A stretch of 62,499 bases of DNA, the filler included, from Nitrospinae bacterium RIFCSPLOWO2_12_FULL_45_22 (GTDB taxonomy: Bacteria; 2-12-FULL-45-22), in NCBI GenBank assembly GCA_001803565.1. It is 6 parts of 6 records of this genome, joined end to end, with 100 filler letters (N's around TTAATTAATTAA, not from the genome) between each part and the next. Parts side by side here need not be neighbours in the genome. Positions count along the whole stretch, not along the records: positions 41,718 to 50,255 come from MHDQ01000075.1; 5 more parts are not named here. One strand, written 5' to 3'. A model generated the notes under the pieces. The model was not told the DNA's origin, made no database searches, and saw nothing but the letters and a program-made list of their open reading frames with translations. Positions 9,278 to 50,355 of this stretch are shown here, piece after piece; the first letter of the stretch is position 1, and each line of letters opens with the position of its first letter. A program made the translations under genes and the position numbers.

Positions 9278-9377
9278 NNNNNNNNNNNNNNNNNNNNNNN
9301 NNNNNNNNNNNNNNNNNNNNNTTAATTAATTAANNNNNNNNNNNNNNNNNNNNNNNNNNNNNNNNNNNNNNNNNNNN
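9278..9377. other. Artificial contig linker
   Basis: 44 N + TTAATTAATTAA + 44 N. Confidence 0.98.
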
Positions 9378-19245: not shown

Positions 19246-19345
19246 NNNNNNNNNNNNNNNNNNNNNNNNNNNNNNNNNNNNNNNNNNNNTTAATTAATTA
19301 ANNNNNNNNNNNNNNNNNNNNNNNNNNNNNNNNNNNNNNNNNNNN
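19246..19345. other. Artificial contig linker
   Basis: N-TTAATTAATTAA-N, 100 bp. Confidence 0.98.
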
Positions 19346-27301: not shown

Positions 27302-27401
27302 NNNNNNNNNNNNNNNNNNNNNNNNNNNNNNNNNNNNNNNNNNNNTTAATTAATTAANNNNNNNNNNNNNNNNNNNNNNNNNNNNNNNNNNNNNNNNNNN
27401 N
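27302..27401. other. Artificial contig linker
   Basis: N-TTAATTAATTAA-N, 100 bp. Confidence 0.98.
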
Positions 27402-41617: not shown

Positions 41618-41717
41618 NNNNNNNNNNNNNNNNNNNNNNNNNNNNNNNNNNNNNNNNNNNNTTAATTAATTAANNNNNNNNNNNNNNNNNNNNNNNNNNN
41701 NNNNNNNNNNNNNNNNN
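41618..41717. other. Artificial contig linker
   Basis: N-TTAATTAATTAA-N, 100 bp. Confidence 0.98.
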
Positions 41718-41736
41718 CTCCTCAATACTAATGATT

Positions 41737-41952
41737 TTATATCAAATTTTTACGTGAGTAAAGCAGATAGGCAGTTTTTATTATTATCCTTGGACGGGTA
41801 AGAACTTCGGCAAGTTCCTGAAGCATGGGCTCAGAGATGACAACATGGAAATCGCCTTGTTCAAAGGATTTTCGTAACCTTGCAGGAAAGCCGAAAGGAT
41901 TGAGTAAAGAAGAGACCCAGATGTTGGTGTCAATAACAGCCTTAACGGCCAC
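41737..41952 (-). pseudogene. PIN-domain toxin, truncated
   Basis: [14 protein letters not shown]...SEPMLQELAEVLTRPRI, then homology lost; only 71 aa. Confidence 0.75.
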
Positions 41953-42181
41953 GTTTTTCTTCTCTGACCTCTTTTATGGCATGGGAAATATCGGATTCTA
42001 TCTCTTCAGAGGTGTATTGTGTAGCTTTTTTGTGTATCTTCTCTATAATGCGGTTAAATCGACTCTGCCATTCATCAAGATAGATTATCTTTATAGTAAC
42101 TTTTTCATGTTCTTTTGCCTCCACCTCTTGAAGAGGTTTAAAAACACCGTTTTCAAAAACAGCATCTATTATTTTAGACAT
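41942..42181 (-). CDS. AF2212/DUF104-like antitoxin
   Basis: [13 protein letters not shown]; overlaps the PIN gene. Confidence 0.8.
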
Positions 42182-42199
42182 GAGTGTGATACCTCCTTA

Positions 42200-42478
42200 T
42201 CATATTCTTAGTATAACATCAATGTTCGTGGTCCCGAAGGCCTTTTTCACAGCGTCTTCAATCTTCGCTGAATCAAGGCTCAAATCTTTTATACAACCTT
42301 TTTTTTCAAGCCGTCCTTCGAGATAAAGAGATATAGAACTCTTGATGTCATCTATGGGTGTCATTAATACCTCAAATTCTTTGCCCGCGGTATCTCTTGC
42401 TATTTCAGCCGGAATAGACAGATGCCCATCTGGAAGGACTTTACCTATAAACTTGTATGCCTTATTTAAGGTTTGCAT
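42200..42478 (-). CDS. Hypothetical antitoxin-like protein, possibly truncated
   Basis: YKFIGKVLPDGHLSIP N-terminus; TA neighbourhood. Confidence 0.45.
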   Translation of the reverse strand: MQTLNKAYKFIGKVLPDGHLSIPAEIARDTAGKEFEVLMTPIDDIKSSISLYLEGRLEKKGCIKDLSLDSAKIEDAVKKAFGTTNIDVILRI

Positions 42479-42596
42479 GTTACTATTTTTAATTTGCCCA
42501 TCCCTTTTTGTCAAGGGATATCTAAACAAAACCGATTCGTTTTGCGTTTTGTATTTACCATATAAATAAGCCACTGTCAAAAAACGGAGAGATAGG

Positions 42597-42734
42597 GCAG
42601 CAATTCTCGGTCAAAATTCTCCTGAGATTGCTTCGTCGCTGAAGCTCCTCGCAATGACATTATGAAAAATTTTTCGGACGTTGCGAGCGGAGCGAAGCAA
42701 TCCCAAAGCTCTTTAGATTGACCGAGAATTACTG
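42597..42734. repeat. Nested palindromic element
   Basis: Outer AATTCTCGGTCAA/TTGACCGAGAATT; inner GAGATTGCTTCGTCGCT..CTCGCAATGAC and TTGCGAGCGGAGCGAAGCAATC. Confidence 0.8.
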
Positions 42735-42878
42735 GGTATTCATTAATATGGAACCCACCAATGGTAGGTACGAGCCGCTTCTCGGCTATATTATTTTAGA
42801 GCAATCGCGCGCAGCTATTGATATGGTTGGTCATCGTCTGGTCCAGGTAAAATATATGGATCTGAAGAAGGGAGTTAT

Positions 42879-43856
42879 CTATTCATAAATATCGGGATTG
42901 AGGAGGTTGGGGGGGCGTTTCCCTTCAAAAACTGCTTTGATGTTTTCTCCACACATAGTACCCATCCGGGTGCGGGTCTCCAGGGTGGCGCTGCCGATAT
43001 GGGGAGTAATCACCACATTAGGGAGCGCTATTAGCCCAGGAGCTAATTCTGGCTCCTTCTCGAATACATCTAATCCAGCCCCAGCCAGCAGGCCGTCTCT
43101 TAGCGCCTGGACCAGCGCCTTTTCATCTACACACTCCCCGCGGGCGGTATTGATGAGGAAGGCAGTCTTTTTCATCTGTCTCATCTCGTTTTCTCCGATA
43201 ATTCCCCTGGTCTCGGGTGTCAGAGGGCAGTGGAGTGATACAAAGTCCGATTCCCTTAAAAGCTCGTCCAGGGAGGTGTAAGTGGCGTTAAGGCTTTGCT
43301 CAATCTGACATGGCAGCCGGGTGCGGTTGAGATAAAGGATCCGCATTTTGAATCCTGAGCCCCGCCGGGCTACGGCTTGGCCGATCCTCCCCATACCGAT
43401 AATTCCGAAGGTCTTGCCGAAGATATCTGCCCCGAGGAACAATGTGGGGCTAAAGCCGCTCCATTTACCTTGTCGGCTGAAGGCATCAGCAGCAGGAATT
43501 TGGCGCGCCACGGCCATCAGTACCGAAAAAGCCAGATCAGCCGTGGTCTCTGTCAAAACCCCTGGGGTATTGGTGGCGGGTATTCTCTGGGCGCTACAGG
43601 CCCTCAGGTCAATATTGTTAAACCCGACCGCGTAATTAGCCACTATCCTGAGCTGTGGCCCCGCGGCGTCAAGGATTTCTCCGTCTACCCGATGGGAAAG
43701 TTGTGGCAACAAGGCATCAGCCCCTTTTACCTCCCGTAGAAACTCCTCCCGGCTAATAGGCCGCTCCTCAGCAAAGATGCGTAAGTGGACAAAGCTACCG
43801 AGATAGTCCAGGGCTGGCTGGCAAATACGGCGGGGGAGGTAAATGATTGGCTTCAT
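42879..43856 (-). CDS. D-2-hydroxyacid dehydrogenase (glyoxylate reductase/D-glycerate dehydrogenase)
   Basis: AVGFNNID, NTPGVLTETTAD, GMGRIG, INTARG, DVFEKEP, PHIGSAT. Confidence 0.92.
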   Translation of the reverse strand: MKPIIYLPRRICQPALDYLGSFVHLRIFAEERPISREEFLREVKGADALLPQLSHRVDGEILDAAGPQLRIVANYAVGFNNIDLRACSAQRIPATNTPGVLTETTADLAFSVLMAVARQIPAADAFSRQGKWSGFSPTLFLGADIFGKTFGIIGMGRIGQAVARRGSGFKMRILYLNRTRLPCQIEQSLNATYTSLDELLRESDFVSLHCPLTPETRGIIGENEMRQMKKTAFLINTARGECVDEKALVQALRDGLLAGAGLDVFEKEPELAPGLIALPNVVITPHIGSATLETRTRMGTMCGENIKAVFEGKRPPNLLNPDIYE

Positions 43857-44440
43857 CTTGTCTTCCTCGGGCGGATGCTAGCAGGTTTGAAGAGAAAAGG
43901 ACTGGCTGTACCTACAATAGTAACTACAGTAGCCAACAAGACTACTACCCTACCGAGCAACCGATACCAATATCCAATCCTCTCTTTGTCTATTGCCCCC
44001 TTTTTAAAAATACCAACGATCTTTTCCACATCATCTATACCTGATTGGAAGGTTATAAGATGTTCCCCTTCCTGAGTGAATATATTCCTGGCTTCATAAT
44101 AGCCTGCTACACCCTTTTGTTCAGAGGCGATCAAGGTCTTTTCTTTTCTGTCTGGGTACTTAATATTGACCTTGGCTTCTAAACCGCTCACATAAAAGCC
44201 GGTTTCGGCCAACTGTACTTCAAAGACCAGCCTAATGGATTCTTTTATAAAAAGGGTTTGGGGATAGGACAAGAATTTTATCCGATAACCGTCACTCCGG
44301 ACTTCCTGTTCCCATTGGACATCTTCTTGATATTCCCCTGCTTCTTCAGCCTCTACCACCAGACCACCATGATGGGCAAAAGATACCGAAGGTACCGATA
44401 TAAGCACGATGAATAATAAGGACAGAACAGTTTTTATCAA
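43853..44440 (-). CDS. Exported YtkA/FixH-like protein with C-terminal TM
   Basis: Signal SFA|HHGG, Ig-like GYYEA...GEHLITF, C-terminal hydrophobic helix. Confidence 0.55.
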   Translation of the reverse strand: MIKTVLSLLFIVLISVPSVSFAHHGGLVVEAEEAGEYQEDVQWEQEVRSDGYRIKFLSYPQTLFIKESIRLVFEVQLAETGFYVSGLEAKVNIKYPDRKEKTLIASEQKGVAGYYEARNIFTQEGEHLITFQSGIDDVEKIVGIFKKGAIDKERIGYWYRLLGRVVVLLATVVTIVGTASPFLFKPASIRPRKTR

Positions 44441-44611
44441 GAGCCTAATTGTGCAATGTTATATTTTGGCAAGCATTATTCATAACCAGACGCAAGGACG
44501 TGTCCGGGAGGCGTGCCATCGTGTCTGTATACCGGAGACGGTTCACGGACACCGAGACGGCTTCAAGGCGTCCCTTTGTGCTCTTTGCGGCTTTGCGGTG
44601 CATAATTTGAA

Positions 44612-45097
44612 TTAAATATTGGATAGGCTCAAGGTCTCTCCCAGGGCAACTATCACCATAACCAGCAGGAGATTTATCTTTGCCAGGGTCTTAAACTTTA
44701 TCCAGGCCCTGTGTGAATCATGAGGGGTAGCCTTACTCCTATCCCCTATAATAAGCGGTATACAGTCCTTCTGGATGAATATTCCGTTAATAACGATAAT
44801 TATATACAGTATAATTTTAGCTAGCATAATCCAGCCATAGGGTTGAGGTAAAAATATAATGCCGGGATCAGACCAGAGTATCAGCCGGGAAAGGCCACTT
44901 ATGAATAGCAATAGGATGCCTATCTCCATAAGGTGGGATATGGCGGGCAAGTTCCCGGAAATAAGTGGTGGTAATGGGTTTCCAGGATTATTTTTCGCTT
45001 TTGTGGTTAAGACAGCGAACCATATATGGCCCCCACCGAAGATCATCAGGCCAATTATATGTAAGAGCATAAATATGAATTCCAGATAGGGAATCAT
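44612..45097 (-). CDS. Four-TM membrane protein, CopD/DUF4149-like
   Basis: LLHIIGLMIFGGGH, LLFISG, YGWIMLAKIIL. Confidence 0.55.
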   Translation of the reverse strand: MIPYLEFIFMLLHIIGLMIFGGGHIWFAVLTTKAKNNPGNPLPPLISGNLPAISHLMEIGILLLFISGLSRLILWSDPGIIFLPQPYGWIMLAKIILYIIIVINGIFIQKDCIPLIIGDRSKATPHDSHRAWIKFKTLAKINLLLVMVIVALGETLSLSNI

Positions 45098-45099
45098 AA

Positions 45100-45681
45100 T
45101 TATTCGTATTCTCTGCGGGAAGTCTGGAGAATAGCAATAACCATAACTATTATCAATGATACAGTGACACCAATAGCGACAAAGCTAGCTATGGTAGCTA
45201 CTTTTGCCTTACTCAGGGCCTCTTTTGCTGAGGCAGATTCCTTGCTATCCCCACCCTCTTTTACCAGGGTCTGAAAATTCCAGTTGCTCCTTTCACCGTC
45301 TTCATAGTCCTGATAGGCCGTCCACAGAAAGGAGCCGGTTTTTGCGGGCGTTTTCGCTATAAACTTAAACTCTTCAAAGGTCAAAGGCGGGATATTACCC
45401 CCGGACCATTTGATCTTCCGGACAAAGCCTGCAGTATCTCTTTCCGTAGAAAAGGACCATTTCTCTTTGCTTCCTATCGCCTCTACCTCATAGCCAGCCG
45501 GGATGACCACCTCGACTTTGGTAGTAGGTGATTCTACCTCAGTAGGGACATTTATACTGTACACACCCCATTTGTTGGGCTCTCCTTTTTGGGGAGAGAT
45601 GTCTATATGGGCTTTAGCATATTCCGGGGTTATAAATATAATGATAAAGGCAATGCTGAGTAGCAGACAAACCCTGGTCAT
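45100..45681 (-). CDS. YcnI/DUF1775 copper-binding membrane protein
   Basis: AKA|HIDISP, NVPTE, IKWSGG, F.F.AKTP, AYQDYEDG..W, C-terminal TM. Confidence 0.82.
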   Translation of the reverse strand: MTRVCLLLSIAFIIIFITPEYAKAHIDISPQKGEPNKWGVYSINVPTEVESPTTKVEVVIPAGYEVEAIGSKEKWSFSTERDTAGFVRKIKWSGGNIPPLTFEEFKFIAKTPAKTGSFLWTAYQDYEDGERSNWNFQTLVKEGGDSKESASAKEALSKAKVATIASFVAIGVTVSLIIVMVIAILQTSRREYE

Positions 45682-45697
45682 ATCCCTAATTCCTCCT

Positions 45698-47239
45698 TCA
45701 CATGGCGGTCCGCATCTCCATCGGCTGTCTCATCAGCCATAGACTAACGAAGGCGCACAAGAATAAAAAAATTAGCAGCAATATATGGCTCCTAAATGCC
45801 CGTCTCTGGTCAGCAAAGCTCTGCTGGGACATTATTCCAGCGATATAGGCAGCATAGCCATATCCTATGACCAGTAACAATGACTGAATATACCATATGA
45901 CAGATAAAGAGATCAGTGGTTTTGGGCTCCAGGCCGCAGTGCCCAATAGGTCCCATTGCCAGCCAAAAGGGTCTGATATGAGCGGTATCAATTTTTGCCC
46001 TTCCTGTAATAGGTGTTGGCTATTGTGGGCCAGATGGTAGAATAGAGCCAGGGGCAAAATGGGATAAGTAAAATTGATAAAGACCTTTTTTAACGGAATA
46101 TCTTCTTGTCGTAAAGACCCCTTTATAATCCAGGAAAAGAGGAAGTAAATTAGCCCTGGAATTATAATTATTGCCGCCATAGCCAGGGTGAAGGAAGGGA
46201 GGTATCCCAGGTTTAACTGGCTCCCTAACTTTGTTGAAATAGTCCGCCAGTAAGGGGTCATAGTCAAGCCATGGAACAGGGTCAGGCTGAGCATAACTAA
46301 AGATAGGATGGCTTCATCGGTCTTGGGCTGGACAGCTTTAACCAGATCAGTAGCGAAGGGTCTTAGGTTGAAAGAGACATTATCTCTCGGGCAGGTCTTT
46401 ATACATTCGGTACATAATATACAATAGGTATTCGTCACCATATTACCCAGATATTCGAAGGTCGGACAACCATAACCGCTGTCATTACCCTTCAGGCAAT
46501 CTTTAGTCTTGCAGGCCGCACAGATATTCTTATCTCTGGCCCTTAATTCGCTGGAGGCAAACATCGCATAGAGTCCACTTATCCTCCCAACCAGGCAGGC
46601 ATAGCGGCAAAAGGATTTCCTCTCAAATATTATAGCCGGTAATATAGTTATAGAAAGCATTACTATACCCAGATAAGCCGTGGCCTTGGGGCTGAAAGTT
46701 ACCCCATACCCTAATTCTAGCCAGGTAAGCAGGATAAAAAGGCCGATAGCCAGATAAATATTCCTGAGTCTCTTGGGCCAAGGCAAATTTAAACTAAAGA
46801 TATCTTTTTTTACTTTCCAAAGGCCCAGCCTTTGCAACCAGCTAGCTATAGCATCCCAGGGACACATAAGACACCACAACTTCCCCATAAATACAATAGC
46901 AATGATAATCCCTGTCCACCAGATAGTCCAGGTTAGAATCGGGGCTATATTCCTGGCTGGGTAGCTGGTGCCATATAAGCCCGCATAGATTATCAGGAGA
47001 AATAAGAATACCCCGGGGAGCTGAATCATGGTCTGGAAAGGTCTCTTATTTGCCAGGGACTTAATGAGGGTAATATTCAATAGGTCATACTTCGGGTAAT
47101 TCTCTGTTGTTGTCCGCCCTTTGATAAAGATAATAAGTATAATACCAGACAGTAACCCTATAGCCGCCAAAGAGCATAGGAAGAGGTAATCAGGCATGCC
47201 CTGCATCGCTTCTTCTTCCATTTGCATCAGGTGATGCAT
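45698..47239 (-). CDS. Membrane polyferredoxin (4Fe-4S binding)
   Basis: GKLWCLMCPW, FCRYAC, CAAC..DC..GCP, CILCTECIKTCP; YHLAHN; His/Met-rich termini. Confidence 0.82.
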   Translation of the reverse strand: MHHLMQMEEEAMQGMPDYLFLCSLAAIGLLSGIILIIFIKGRTTTENYPKYDLLNITLIKSLANKRPFQTMIQLPGVFLFLLIIYAGLYGTSYPARNIAPILTWTIWWTGIIIAIVFMGKLWCLMCPWDAIASWLQRLGLWKVKKDIFSLNLPWPKRLRNIYLAIGLFILLTWLELGYGVTFSPKATAYLGIVMLSITILPAIIFERKSFCRYACLVGRISGLYAMFASSELRARDKNICAACKTKDCLKGNDSGYGCPTFEYLGNMVTNTYCILCTECIKTCPRDNVSFNLRPFATDLVKAVQPKTDEAILSLVMLSLTLFHGLTMTPYWRTISTKLGSQLNLGYLPSFTLAMAAIIIIPGLIYFLFSWIIKGSLRQEDIPLKKVFINFTYPILPLALFYHLAHNSQHLLQEGQKLIPLISDPFGWQWDLLGTAAWSPKPLISLSVIWYIQSLLLVIGYGYAAYIAGIMSQQSFADQRRAFRSHILLLIFLFLCAFVSLWLMRQPMEMRTAM

Positions 47240-47249
47240 ATGCGCCTGG

Positions 47250-47774
47250 TTAATTGCTCGTCTCCTTATTACAAATTGCTAATCTCCCCTTCCGGAGAAA
47301 GGCCACTAAGGCTATAGCTACTACCAGAAAAACGCCTATCAGGCCCAGAAAGATCATGCTGGGGCCTTTTCCATTACCAATCTGAACAGCAGTATGAACT
47401 TTTTGCTCACTATCCCCAACCTGGAACTGGACCCCTATTTCGTACTTACCTCTTTTTGGCCAGATATGTTGCACTTCATAGAACCCCTTGCCAAATCGGT
47501 TTGCCGTGTATTGCCTTGTCTGATCCTTTTCCCCTGAAGGGTAGACCGAAATTACGACCCTGCTTTTGACTGGCTCCTTCGTTTTATAATCTTCTATATA
47601 TACTATAATCTCCCCTATCTCGCCCGGCTGTGGTACTTCGGGGAATGGTGCCAGCTTTACCAAAAAAACTCCGGCATAGATTTCCTTAAAGACCAGATTT
47701 TCTGTGGGCAAATGGGCCAGAGAATTTATAGGCAGGATAATTAAGATCAATATCAAGGCAAAACCACTGGCCAT
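47250..47774 (-). CDS. Exported YtkA/FixH-like protein with C-terminal TM
   Basis: Signal SLA|HLPT, PEVPQPG, GFYEV..WPKRGKYEI; start uncertain. Confidence 0.6.
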   Translation of the reverse strand: MASGFALILILIILPINSLAHLPTENLVFKEIYAGVFLVKLAPFPEVPQPGEIGEIIVYIEDYKTKEPVKSRVVISVYPSGEKDQTRQYTANRFGKGFYEVQHIWPKRGKYEIGVQFQVGDSEQKVHTAVQIGNGKGPSMIFLGLIGVFLVVAIALVAFLRKGRLAICNKETSN

Positions 47775-47811
47775 AGGGGATATGGAAGGGGGAAGGCCAT
47801 TAGGAGGAGAT

Positions 47812-49320
47812 TTAAAATTCATACGATATATTGAACTTAAAGACATCCCATTTGTCCCAACGGCCTACAAAATCATTAGAGTGTCCCCAGAAGGCATAAT
47901 ATTCTGCATTAAGTGATACGTAGTCACCCAGGACAAATTTTATACCGAGCCGGTTCTTTCCCTGGCCCTGGTTAAAATAATTATAATAGGTATTGTAAAG
48001 GGTGAGCCGGTCATCAAAATACTCAAAGGGATGGCTTATGTTCAGGACGACAAAGGTCTCATCTCGCTCCAGCGGCATCATGTCCGGTTGATCATATTTA
48101 AAGGCATGGATATTGGCAAAGATAGTCATCACAGTCCAGTCCTTATGGATATAGGTATTGAGGTAGAAGGCGAGGAAGTTGGTATTGATCCGGGTCACAC
48201 CATCCCTCCCGGGCAATAGATATCCACGGCGTAAAGGGTCTAGCTCTCCCCTGGTTGGGACATACAGGTTCTGGGTAAATAGGTTTTCCAGGCGAAAGTC
48301 CCAGCCCCTATCCAGCCACCAGAAAGACCTGACCAGGCCAACCATATGCTGGTGCAGGCGGGTGAATTCTGCTTCCGGGGCCTGATTAATCCGAGGGGCC
48401 CGCTGAAATATAGTAGGAGTGTCATTCCAGTTATAGAAATAGCCATAAGAAAGCTCCCAGGAGCCCAGAGCCTTCCATTCTATCGGGGTAAGCCAATCCA
48501 GCAGAAAGGCTATCTCAGAATTAGCCGGGTTCTGAGGGGGTTTATCTAAGCGATAAGGCCGGTAGTCCTTGCTGGGATTATAAGGGAAAGGAGATTCTCC
48601 CATCCCCGGGACCAACCCCTGGCTCTCCTCAAAGTCTGGTATCCAGATGGTGCGAAAATTAAAGGTCCCTTTGGTCCATAAGGCATTGACCATCCAGGTA
48701 GGGATGCGTAAGAATTTATAGTTATCCACGACCTCGGCCGGCCCTTGCCACTGGATGGTAGGGTTGATGATATCCACAACCCTGAAGTCCATCTTACCCA
48801 AGACTACCTGCTGTTTACCGACCCGGAAGTACCAATTACCGGCAAAGATATCTGCATAGAGCTCCCGCAGTATCTGCTTGGTAGTGTAATAATATTCCTT
48901 CTCCAGGTCTCTTATCTGCCCACCACCCTTGGCCAGGCCACTCTTTGGTTCCCAATCATAGACGGCATCATAGCGATAATTAGTTACCCCACCCAGGCTA
49001 ATCCTATTAGTAAGCCGATACCGGAACTCTAGCTCCCCTAGCCACTCTATCTGGTCAAAGTCATTCTTACGCTGTCTATGGGTGGCGGTCGCGCCGGTCT
49101 TACCTTCGGCATACACCCAGGTCTGGTTCCTAAGTAAGCCCCTCAGCCTTAATTTTGGTATAGCCTGATGTATCGGGTCCAGGACATTTGCCATAGGGTT
49201 AAACATCCCTACCCTACGCAAGACGTCCAGTGCTTCGGCCCTAACCGCGGCCGGCTTTCCATATATTCCTAATAAGTACACAACGAGAACTATCAAGTAC
49301 AGAGATATTTTCCTGGACAT
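47812..49320 (-). CDS. Outer-membrane beta-barrel, DUF1302-like
   Basis: Signal peptide, LRELYAD, RVGKQQVV.GK.D, VVDIINP, RIPTWM, terminal ISYEF. Confidence 0.75.
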   Translation of the reverse strand: MSRKISLYLIVLVVYLLGIYGKPAAVRAEALDVLRRVGMFNPMANVLDPIHQAIPKLRLRGLLRNQTWVYAEGKTGATATHRQRKNDFDQIEWLGELEFRYRLTNRISLGGVTNYRYDAVYDWEPKSGLAKGGGQIRDLEKEYYYTTKQILRELYADIFAGNWYFRVGKQQVVLGKMDFRVVDIINPTIQWQGPAEVVDNYKFLRIPTWMVNALWTKGTFNFRTIWIPDFEESQGLVPGMGESPFPYNPSKDYRPYRLDKPPQNPANSEIAFLLDWLTPIEWKALGSWELSYGYFYNWNDTPTIFQRAPRINQAPEAEFTRLHQHMVGLVRSFWWLDRGWDFRLENLFTQNLYVPTRGELDPLRRGYLLPGRDGVTRINTNFLAFYLNTYIHKDWTVMTIFANIHAFKYDQPDMMPLERDETFVVLNISHPFEYFDDRLTLYNTYYNYFNQGQGKNRLGIKFVLGDYVSLNAEYYAFWGHSNDFVGRWDKWDVFKFNISYEF

Positions 49321-49325
49321 TTAGT

Positions 49326-50255
49326 CTACTCCTTTACCTTTATGGTTATTCCCATTTTTTTCCAAAACTCACTTCTGACCGCTGGTTCTGAGGCAATATC
49401 GGAATAATCCTTTACTGGATGGAACTTTATCTCTTCCTTGAGAATCGGCGGAGTAGCTAAGGCCCCTAAACTAAATTCTTTTTCCGTATGGCGGTTGAAT
49501 TTCCAAACAACTCGATGGATAGTGCGCCTCTTCTGGGGGAGCTTGATGACATTGGTCAATCTGGGAGCCCAAAAACCTCCCGGCTCTACCTGGTACCAGT
49601 CTTTATCAAAAAGCTTGAAAATCTCCCCTTTTCGATCAAACTGCTCTTCATGTATCTCGAGAAAATTATTCCGCTCCACCCAGTTAACCCGCTTGCTCAG
49701 GTAATATTTGGGGTCTTTATGGATGCTCTCTATCACCAGGCAATCATACCCCTTTAACTTATCTTCCCCTATAATACTATGATTCTCCTCCCAGGGGTCC
49801 CTGCTATCGTCATCATCGCGGGTAGTTATCATAGTGCCGTAATTATCCTGGCGATGATTAGGATTAAGCCGGCTTACCTTTCTCAAGCCCACGCTATAAC
49901 TCCACTGGGCCTTCTCTTTGTAGTGACCATCGCCGTTTAGATAAAAGAGACCTAAGGATGTGTTACCTCTCGCCTCCGGTGGTGACAGGGTTATATAGAC
50001 CTCTTTATACTCTATATCGCCTGGTCTGATACCATTATAGGCTATTCGATCCAGGTAATTCTTGAGATAGAATTTCCTTTTCCCCCACACATCACCTACT
50101 CTTATGCCTCCCCAGCGGCTGGCATTGATACAGCTATGGATCTCGTCGCAATTAGCCCAGAGTTGATATTTGACCATATCTACATAGGTCATTACCTCCA
50201 GTCCGGTATAGCCATATCTCTTTATCTCCTCCTTTTCAATATTAGTCAGTTCCTT
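49326..50255 (-). CDS. LolA-like/DUF1329 outer-membrane lipoprotein-sorting protein (5' partial)
   Basis: SPPEARG, WSYSVGLRKVSR, T.DD, YYLSKRVNWV, EQFDRKG; frame open to contig edge. Confidence 0.72.
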   Translation of the reverse strand, partial: KELTNIEKEEIKRYGYTGLEVMTYVDMVKYQLWANCDEIHSCINASRWGGIRVGDVWGKRKFYLKNYLDRIAYNGIRPGDIEYKEVYITLSPPEARGNTSLGLFYLNGDGHYKEKAQWSYSVGLRKVSRLNPNHRQDNYGTMITTRDDDDSRDPWEENHSIIGEDKLKGYDCLVIESIHKDPKYYLSKRVNWVERNNFLEIHEEQFDRKGEIFKLFDKDWYQVEPGGFWAPRLTNVIKLPQKRRTIHRVVWKFNRHTEKEFSLGALATPPILKEEIKFHPVKDYSDIASEPAVRSEFWKKMGITIKVKE

Positions 50256-50355
50256 NNNNNNNNNNNNNNNNNNNNNNNNNNNNNNNNNNNNNNNNNNNNT
50301 TAATTAATTAANNNNNNNNNNNNNNNNNNNNNNNNNNNNNNNNNNNNNNNNNNNN
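50256..50355. other. Artificial contig linker
   Basis: N-TTAATTAATTAA-N, 100 bp. Confidence 0.98.

Follow-up and report, generated by a model that had tools for sequence, protein, structure and literature searches.

One contig, C75, of the 62,499-nucleotide stretch of DNA analysed here (the window, taken from assembly GCA_001803565.1 of Nitrospinae bacterium RIFCSPLOWO2_12_FULL_45_22) is filled by a cluster of genes whose core is probably a copper-trafficking set of the kind known from ycnI and ycnJ of Bacillus subtilis, in a form that is split into separate genes and lacks CopC. A membrane polyferredoxin is a plausible redox partner of this set, and an outer-membrane barrel encoded together with a LolA-like protein is best regarded as standing apart from it. 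This interpretation draws on the following: the copper ligands of the YcnI protein are kept; the order of the genes for YcnI, a small CopD-like membrane protein and a YtkA-like protein whose predicted mature form starts with the motif HHGG (the HHGG protein) recurs in a second genome; the last two of these proteins are fused in one homologue; the HHGG start is conserved and accompanied by a suitable predicted fold; and the genome encodes a caa3 cytochrome oxidase together with Sco.

The window is a pseudomolecule, in which contigs C71, C72, C73, C74, C75 and C77 of a metagenome-assembled genome (G000; 321 contigs, 3.67 Mb, 85% completeness) are chained by N44-TTAATTAATTAA-N44 linkers at window positions 9278-9377, 19246-19345, 27302-27401, 41618-41717 and 50256-50355, so that gene neighbourhoods spanning a linker are not genomic. 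C75 covers positions 41718-50255 (8538 bp), and the genes past 50355 belong to another contig. The eight co-oriented open reading frames (ORFs) that an earlier note on this DNA had described were all recovered on the minus strand, tightly packed, and are given here in the direction of transcription, each with the distance to the next gene:

49326..50255, minus strand: LolA-like/DUF1329-like periplasmic protein, 5' end missing (matches to PF17131, DUF1329 and PDB sequences); gap of 5 nt
47812..49320, minus strand: divergent DUF1302-family outer-membrane barrel, 502 aa, with a signal peptide and C-terminal YEF (PF06980 matches of paralogues and homologues); gap of 37 nt, or an overlap, depending on the start of the next gene (alternatives at 47822 and 47846)
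47250..47774, minus strand: YtkA-like, immunoglobulin-like (Ig-like) protein 1, predicted mature N-terminus HLP (PF13115, below the cut-off); gap of 10 nt
45698..47239, minus strand: membrane polyferredoxin, 513 aa, about ten transmembrane (TM) helices (Fer4_5, below the cut-off; Cys motifs); gap of 16 nt
45100..45681, minus strand: YcnI (DUF1775), predicted Cu(II) chaperone, anchored by a C-terminal TM segment (DUF1775; alignment to PDB 7me6); gap of 2 nt
44612..45097, minus strand: minimal 4-TM CopD-like membrane protein, 161 aa (PF05425, below the cut-off; 51% identical counterpart in locus L040 of a related genome); gap of 171 nt
44441..44611, no strand: the 171-nt spacer, with a short dispersed repeat (similarity to other contigs of the genome)
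43853..44440, minus strand: YtkA-like (Ig-like) protein 2, the HHGG protein, predicted mature N-terminus HHGG, C-terminal TM anchor (HHGG family of 24 proteins); 4-nt overlap, the start of the next gene lying over the preceding stop
42879..43856, minus strand: 2-hydroxyacid dehydrogenase similar to glyoxylate/hydroxypyruvate reductases (glyoxylate reductase model)

A consensus scan for terminator-like sites returned none in the minus-strand intergenic gaps (7 in total, vs 8.7 expected from shuffles), and the genes of C75 are likely to be co-transcribed.

The YcnI protein matches DUF1775 with 55.7 bits (cut-off 25), and its residues His25, Glu48 and Trp134 align with His27, Glu50 and Trp137 of B. 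subtilis YcnI (PDB 7me6, E 1.2e-13), that is, all three copper ligands of the Bacillus protein are kept. These are the ligands by which the mono-histidine brace of B. subtilis YcnI has been defined, and the N-terminal histidine has been described as near-universal in DUF1775 (PMC8424229). The C75 protein is predicted on these grounds to be a Cu(II) chaperone. The protein encoded immediately after it contains four hydrophobic segments and reaches 25.5 bits with the CopD profile PF05425 (26.4 bits in a genome-wide search; cut-off 32.1), with no match among PDB sequences at E<=10. Its His13, in TM1, is kept in all three sequences compared and may correspond to H295 of YcnJ, the TM histidine required for function there.

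The HHGG protein has no Pfam match and is 25% identical to YtkA-like protein 1 (E 0.001). An exhaustive HMMER search among 1.84 billion representatives delimited its family to 24 proteins, of which 17 were aligned with the query (its own entry was set aside, as were six fragments whose match begins no earlier than query residue 42). HHGG[L/I] stands directly after the signal peptide in 15 of the 16 sequences that bear an N-terminus, the remaining one having AHLGV, and YtkA is matched weakly by 5 of the 18 aligned members (best E 7.9e-4). The AlphaFold2 model of the protein (predicted local distance difference test, pLDDT, 87) is an eight-strand beta-sandwich followed by a TM helix, and its top Foldseek matches are copper proteins of the periplasm, CrdA, FetP, P19, CopC, FtrA and PmoD (E ~1e-4), amid generic Ig-like folds. 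As modelled, the HHGG protein would be a membrane-anchored, extracytoplasmic Ig-like beta-sandwich with the structural features of the YtkA type.

The three genes travel together. A pattern scan of the genomes of 185,579 species, based on a four-sequence alignment of the HHGG family, returned a single locus (L040), in which YcnI (42% identity), the CopD-like protein (51%) and the HHGG protein (45%) are encoded in the same order as in C75. By its identical place and score, this is a locus of genome G001, the only available relative from the same taxonomic order, where the triad lies on contig C55; a phylum-level search centred on that genome returned only the genome itself. Moreover, one homologue (P0024, on a 1076-bp contig) is a fusion of the CopD-like protein with the HHGG protein. 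A YtkA-type domain that follows CopD, with YcnI adjacent, is the arrangement given by the order of C75, by that of L040 and by the P0024 fusion. The distance between the CopD-like and HHGG genes varies: they are 171 nt apart in C75, overlap in L040 and are fused in P0024. The conservation of the neighbourhood stops at the triad, since neither the polyferredoxin, YtkA-like protein 1, the barrel nor the LolA-like protein is encoded in L040 within 10 kb on one side and 9.0 kb (up to the contig end) on the other. In sum, the interpretation as a split, CopC-less form of the Bacillus ycnIJ system is supported for YcnI, the CopD-like protein and the HHGG protein.

In B. subtilis, YcnJ consists of CopC, CopD and YtkA parts and is encoded beside YcnI; a role in building the CuA site with Sco is shared between its YtkA domain and the lipoprotein CtaK (PMC13344008), while YcnI and the CopC domain of YcnJ exchange Cu(II) (PMC12362106). 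The combination of YcnI, CopD and YtkA is already known as the design of the Bacillus system (PMC13344008), so that the route inferred in the earlier note is not a new one. Both systems share a YcnI with the residues of the mono-histidine brace, a CopD-type protein followed by a YtkA-type Ig-like domain, and the tethering of parts at the membrane's outer face, the likely clients being a caa3 oxidase and Sco encoded in the genome. Unlike ycnKJI, the C75 genome (85% complete) has no CopC, its CopD-like protein has only four TM segments and a score below the cut-off, the YtkA-type part is encoded apart, as a protein that has a signal peptide and an N-terminal HHGG of its own, the YcnK regulator is lacking, the host is a diderm, and a second His-tipped Ig-like protein and the polyferredoxin are added.

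As to what the copper would be for, contig C278 of the same genome encodes Sco (with its CxxxC motif), COX1 (511 bits), COX3 and COX4, along with a COX2 that has both the complete CuA motif and a cytochrome c domain, and a caa3 oxidase served by Sco is a plausible client of the copper set. CopC (PF04234), as a partner or as a fusion, was found neither on C75 nor elsewhere in the 85%-complete genome, and PCuAC and multicopper-oxidase domains were not found in the genome either. The pcuABCDE operon of Bradyrhizobium is a Gram-negative copper-starvation operon whose deletion lowers aa3 oxidase activity (PMC6669012) and which likewise includes a YcnI-like protein, PcuD (PMC8424229); it differs in that its key chaperone is a PCuAC protein, PcuC. 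A second CopD-family ORF is encoded in the genome (G000:C216:4055-5023; 44.3 bits, above the cut-off), with an exported N-terminal part carrying a CEGCH haem c motif, and it adjoins an HGD-D-like gene and small ORFs resembling toxin-antitoxin genes.

The N-terminal histidines noticed in the sequence held up well. The sites SLA|H, AKA|H and SFA|HH are all present in the translations and, judged by eye, satisfy the -3/-1 small-residue rule: YcnI and YtkA-like proteins 1 and 2 each have a signal-like segment, a small-x-small site immediately before the histidine and a C-terminal membrane anchor, which suggests that the signal peptide is cleaved ahead of the histidine in all three. As for the conservation that the earlier note expected of these histidines, the His/Glu/Trp ligands of YcnI and the HHGG start behave as described above, and LA|HLP is kept in six out of six sequences of YtkA-like protein 1, which come from only two lineages. 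The latter protein has a beta-rich domain followed by a TM anchor at its C-terminus and scores 18.7 bits with PF13115 (cut-off 25.9); the nearest ESM-Atlas clusters bear the name 'YtkA-like' (score 0.96), to be taken as a lead only. Its membership of the HHGG family was considered and rejected, as hhalign gave just a 26-column motif match with a probability of 46%. Both Ig-like proteins may well bind metal.

Taken together, three periplasmic proteins tethered to the inner membrane (YcnI and the two of the YtkA type) would begin with a histidine once mature, would bind copper on the periplasmic side of the inner membrane and would hand it from one to another, after which the metal would pass to the minimal 4-TM CopD-like permease and/or to Sco, loading the caa3 cytochrome oxidase. 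The polyferredoxin, with a Cu(I)-type module at its predicted periplasmic N-terminus, would couple electron transfer from cytoplasmic iron-sulfur (Fe-S) clusters to a metal site in the periplasm, in a reaction that, if CcoG is a guide, could for example reduce Cu(II) to Cu(I). Gene content, conserved residues, the order of YcnI, CopD and HHGG genes, the domain fusions and the presence of caa3 oxidase and Sco are all directly seen in the data; from them we infer which way copper is transported, that the polyferredoxin acts as a reductase and that the oxidase is the client.

Does the polyferredoxin belong to the same machinery? Its profile matches are weak: 21.1 bits with Fer4_5 (cut-off 22) and 21.4 bits with NapH/MauN (cut-off 213). 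Its family, to which the homologues P0048-P0166 belong, is large (at E<=1e-20 it numbers 1248 proteins or more), and homologues at E<=1e-50 are found in 16 of 401 sampled genomes. A literature search on polyferredoxins with YHS, NosL and copper returned no description of this family. Across 28 aligned members (short forms), the CxxCP and CxxxC motifs, the Cys groups C240/243/248/258 and C273/276/279/283 (4-Cys cluster motifs, the one canonical and the other atypical) and, within the C-terminal TM helices, the four histidines H323, H402, H405 and H409 are invariant. The C75 protein starts with MHHLMQM and ends with PMEMRTAM, both read correctly in the earlier note. Met-rich ends are indeed a feature of the family, with at least three Met in 18 of the 28 N-terminal tails (up to 8 in 20 residues) and PMxMR at the C-terminal end of 25 of the 28, but MHHLMQM itself is not kept letter for letter. 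Furthermore, copper-type domains are found in 58 of the 120 best homologues, namely YHS in 50, NosL in 6 and HMBD in 2, and they are N-terminal, ahead of the Fer4_5 motif, in the six homologues inspected. According to the positive-inside rule and the order of helices in the AlphaFold2 model (pLDDT 85), both termini would be periplasmic and the Fe-S part cytoplasmic. Together, these features point to an outward-facing copper-type site that is supplied by cytoplasmic iron-sulfur clusters. Structure entries of ESM-Atlas, which are leads only, place the fold in proteins bearing Caa3_CtaG and in a cluster with COX2 in 13% of its members.

The pairing of the polyferredoxin with YtkA-like protein 1 has a further indication: an 81% identical homologue of the former and a 68% identical homologue of the latter are each found on a single 5621-bp contig, so that the two probably share that contig, which favours a real pairing. 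The polyferredoxin and YtkA-like protein 1 are a plausible redox partner of the copper set. The N-terminal extensions of the homologues from genomes G034 and G007 were tried as YtkA-like domains and rejected (BLASTP E 0.22 and 0.5; hhalign probability 4%). In G034 (contig C8), a 102-aa exported protein with a predicted mature N-terminal histidine (AGLA|HTGEKHEK) is encoded directly downstream of the polyferredoxin homologue (L031, 9937-10242), followed by genes for a cytochrome b and a PCYCGC protein, with CusBA-type and YHS genes upstream.

The closest functional analogue would be CcoG, a cupric reductase that is linked to oxidase biogenesis and combines copper sites and two 4Fe-4S clusters with a periplasmic Ig-like domain (PMC7558416). 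The polyferredoxin resembles CcoG/FixG (and YccM) in its polytopic membrane architecture and in having a Fer4_5-type motif, predicted cytoplasmic 4Fe-4S sites, copper-type elements and an Ig-like association. It differs from them in the absence of TIGR02745, Fer4_18 and FixG_C matches, in that the Ig-like part is a separate upstream gene in C75 instead of a C-terminal domain, and in an extra C-terminal 5-TM domain with the four invariant histidines, the reductase activity being putative in its case.

Several observations weigh against the interpretation of C75 as a ycnIJ-like set with the polyferredoxin as its redox partner. The CopD-like protein and both YtkA-like proteins stay below the Pfam cut-offs, and the internal position of HHGG in P0024 means that a free N-terminal amine is not universal in the family. 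The search of the polyferredoxin with the CcoG profiles just named gave nothing at E<=0.01, no PDB sequence matched it, and Foldseek returned nothing at E<=0.001 (best TM-score ~0.15), which leaves it with no solved structural relative; VIA-align found generic helical bundles only (Z up to 7.4). As for its genomic context, eleven neighbourhoods of homologues were read (the GC-rich loci L056, L060 and L062 being left out of the count). None of the eleven contains YcnI, the CopD-like protein or the HHGG protein by BLASTP, and four are NapA/NapG/NapH-like operons (G051:C9, G216, G244 and G355); of the rest, three have cupredoxin/COX2-like or CusBA/YHS neighbours (G051:C45, G040 and G034) and four are of other kinds. 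Genome G001, which has the triad, contains no close polyferredoxin (best 24 bits). The role of a membrane reductase, which we infer for the protein, is weakened by this usual Nap-like neighbourhood. In addition, no regulator or copper enzyme is encoded on contig C75, and the tight packing of the barrel pair with the copper genes, with no terminator between them, makes a local functional link between the two possible.

The Nap-like contexts give rise to a different explanation, in which the polyferredoxin and the Ig-like protein encoded upstream of it form a NapH-type electron-transfer module for a periplasmic oxidoreductase, take no part in copper handling and lie beside ycnIJ-like genes by chance. 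In addition to those four of the eleven contexts, the weak NapH and Fer4_5 matches speak for it. Nevertheless, three unrelated copper-type domains (YHS, NosL and HMBD) or Met tracts occupy the N-terminus of the family, the ESM-Atlas leads connect the fold with Caa3_CtaG and COX2, no molybdoenzyme or NapG gene is encoded on C75, and the gaps to the neighbouring genes are just 10 and 16 nt. Unlike in a NapH/NapG module, there are no Nap genes on C75, and the neighbours of the polyferredoxin are bona fide copper chaperone genes. We regard this explanation as possible, if rather unlikely.

Even if the set handles copper, would it serve acquisition? CopD was originally named as a resistance protein. 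YcnI has been proposed to sequester Cu(II) and to limit its entry (PMC12362106), and the over-production of CcoG raises copper tolerance (PMC7558416), all of which would fit a role in tolerance by sequestration at the membrane surface, controlled entry or efflux. That role seems unlikely to us, as C75 encodes no efflux ATPase, CusCBA, multicopper oxidase or copper sensor, and the homologous Bacillus genes support growth under copper limitation (PMC13344008 and PMC12362106).

In the opposite direction, the set could be extended to a line of reductive copper uptake in diderms, where two His-tipped Ig-like families, one of them with the N-terminal HHGG, replace CopC as receivers of Cu(II), the polyferredoxin acts as a periplasm-facing cupric reductase and the minimal 4-TM CopD-like protein imports Cu(I) for the caa3 oxidase. 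Electrons would then run from the 4Fe-4S clusters through the histidine-lined TM domain to the Met-rich periplasmic tails. This extension is speculative, and we hold it to be improbable.

The outer-membrane part of the cluster calls for a separate treatment. The LolA-like protein scores 70.2 bits with PF17131 (cut-off 30) and 25 bits with DUF1329 (cut-off 23.1), and it matches the PDB sequences 9tp6, 3bk5 and 4z48. At E<=0.01 the barrel itself matches no Pfam family. Its identity to the paralogues in the genome is 26-34%; two of these (on contigs C191 and C65) match PF06980 with 48.8 and 29.3 bits, and PF06980 is found in 11 of 20 database homologues. That this pair would constitute a TonB-independent entry for copper or for a copper chelate, feeding the histidine relay, a reductase and a permease, is the weakest part of the earlier note, whose copper-handling operon is supported for the YcnI, CopD-like and HHGG genes but not for the barrel and the LolA-like protein as the point of copper entry. 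In favour of such an entry, the genes share a strand, the gaps are of 5 nt and at most 37 nt with no terminator-like site between them, and the C75 barrel is the most divergent copy in the genome, with no Pfam match.

Against it, at least five further barrel/LolA-like pairs or fragments exist in the genome, adjoining genes for HGD-D-type dehydratases, radical SAM proteins, FGE-sulfatases and others. In G001, the one readable relative, the pair with the highest identity (barrel 34-37%, LolA-like protein 36%) is flanked by HGD-D-type genes on contig C36. The triad is located on C55, and no such pair stands within 10 kb of it (9.0 kb on the side where the contig ends), so that the link between the barrel pair and copper genes that the earlier note expected in other genomes is not seen there. 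The 84% identical barrel P0002 lies on a 46431-bp contig, and no homologue of the polyferredoxin or of YtkA-like protein 1 with a contig of that size was returned, which is indirect evidence. A barrel-only scan of genome contigs gave no relative, and a metagenome scan with the barrel alignment returned C75 itself plus five loci (30-36% identity), none of them with copper genes, the contig of the 84% homologue not being among those returned. The His and Met contents of the barrel (1.6% and 2.0%) and of the LolA-like protein (2.9% and 1.3%) show no excess over the paralogues.

Distant metagenomic homologues (L038 and L039) occur in units of barrel, BNR, LolA-like and MMPL genes, as in the AmeABCD design (barrel, DUF1329/LolA-like, BNR and RND proteins), which has been linked to hydrophobic substrates (PMC6394551; fitness data from P. 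putida). The C75 barrel and LolA-like protein are of the same families as those of AmeABCD, whose full four-gene complement is seen in L038 and L039; they differ in that C75 ends inside the LolA-like gene, leaving any BNR and RND partners out of view, and in that copper genes follow the pair. The notion of an outer-membrane copper channel, which rests on adjacency within one short contig, is very unlikely to be right, and the further variant in which the pair imports copper on a hydrophobic chelator, to be released by the reductase, is likewise very unlikely. Most likely, the pair is an organic-substrate uptake or efflux unit of the lineage and not a copper route, even if it is probably co-transcribed with its neighbours here.

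It may be added that DUF1302/LolA-like pairs are found repeatedly beside genes of the 2-hydroxyacyl-CoA-dehydratase/benzoyl-CoA-reductase type (HGD-D), on contigs C148, C181, C191 and C65 of the genome studied and on C36 of G001 (L068).

The remaining features of C75 are of lesser weight. The LolA-like ORF runs open into the contig end, with about 44 codons of its 5' end lost, and a search of the contigs for the missing part gave no convincing carrier. The dehydrogenase (380 bits with the glyoxylate reductase model, cut-off 455) is probably co-transcribed with the HHGG gene; it does not follow the triad in L040 and is placed outside the conserved set. The repeat in the spacer at 44441-44611 has counterparts in C314 (58 nt at 88% identity) and in C207, C287 and C312 (26-29 nt at about 96%), and an Rfam scan of the contig returned nothing at E<=0.1. 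At the opposite end of C75 (window 41825-42580), two small ORFs of 128 and 126 aa overlap on opposite strands, the latter with no Pfam match at E<=0.01.

Copper acquisition and its routing to respiratory oxidases are still poorly known, especially in diderms, and the model of the Bacillus ycnIJ system is recent. Against this background, a rare family of HHGG-tipped Ig-like proteins that travels with YcnI and a minimal CopD offers a clean candidate for a new copper receiver of the histidine-brace type. Similarly, bona fide copper chaperone genes are here the immediate neighbours of one member of a large and so far unnamed polyferredoxin family, which provides a functional clue that has no counterpart in the usual Nap-like neighbourhoods of that family. 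If the reductive-uptake reading were true, this polyferredoxin family, most of whose members are found in Nap-like operons, would constitute a widespread class of periplasmic copper reductases.

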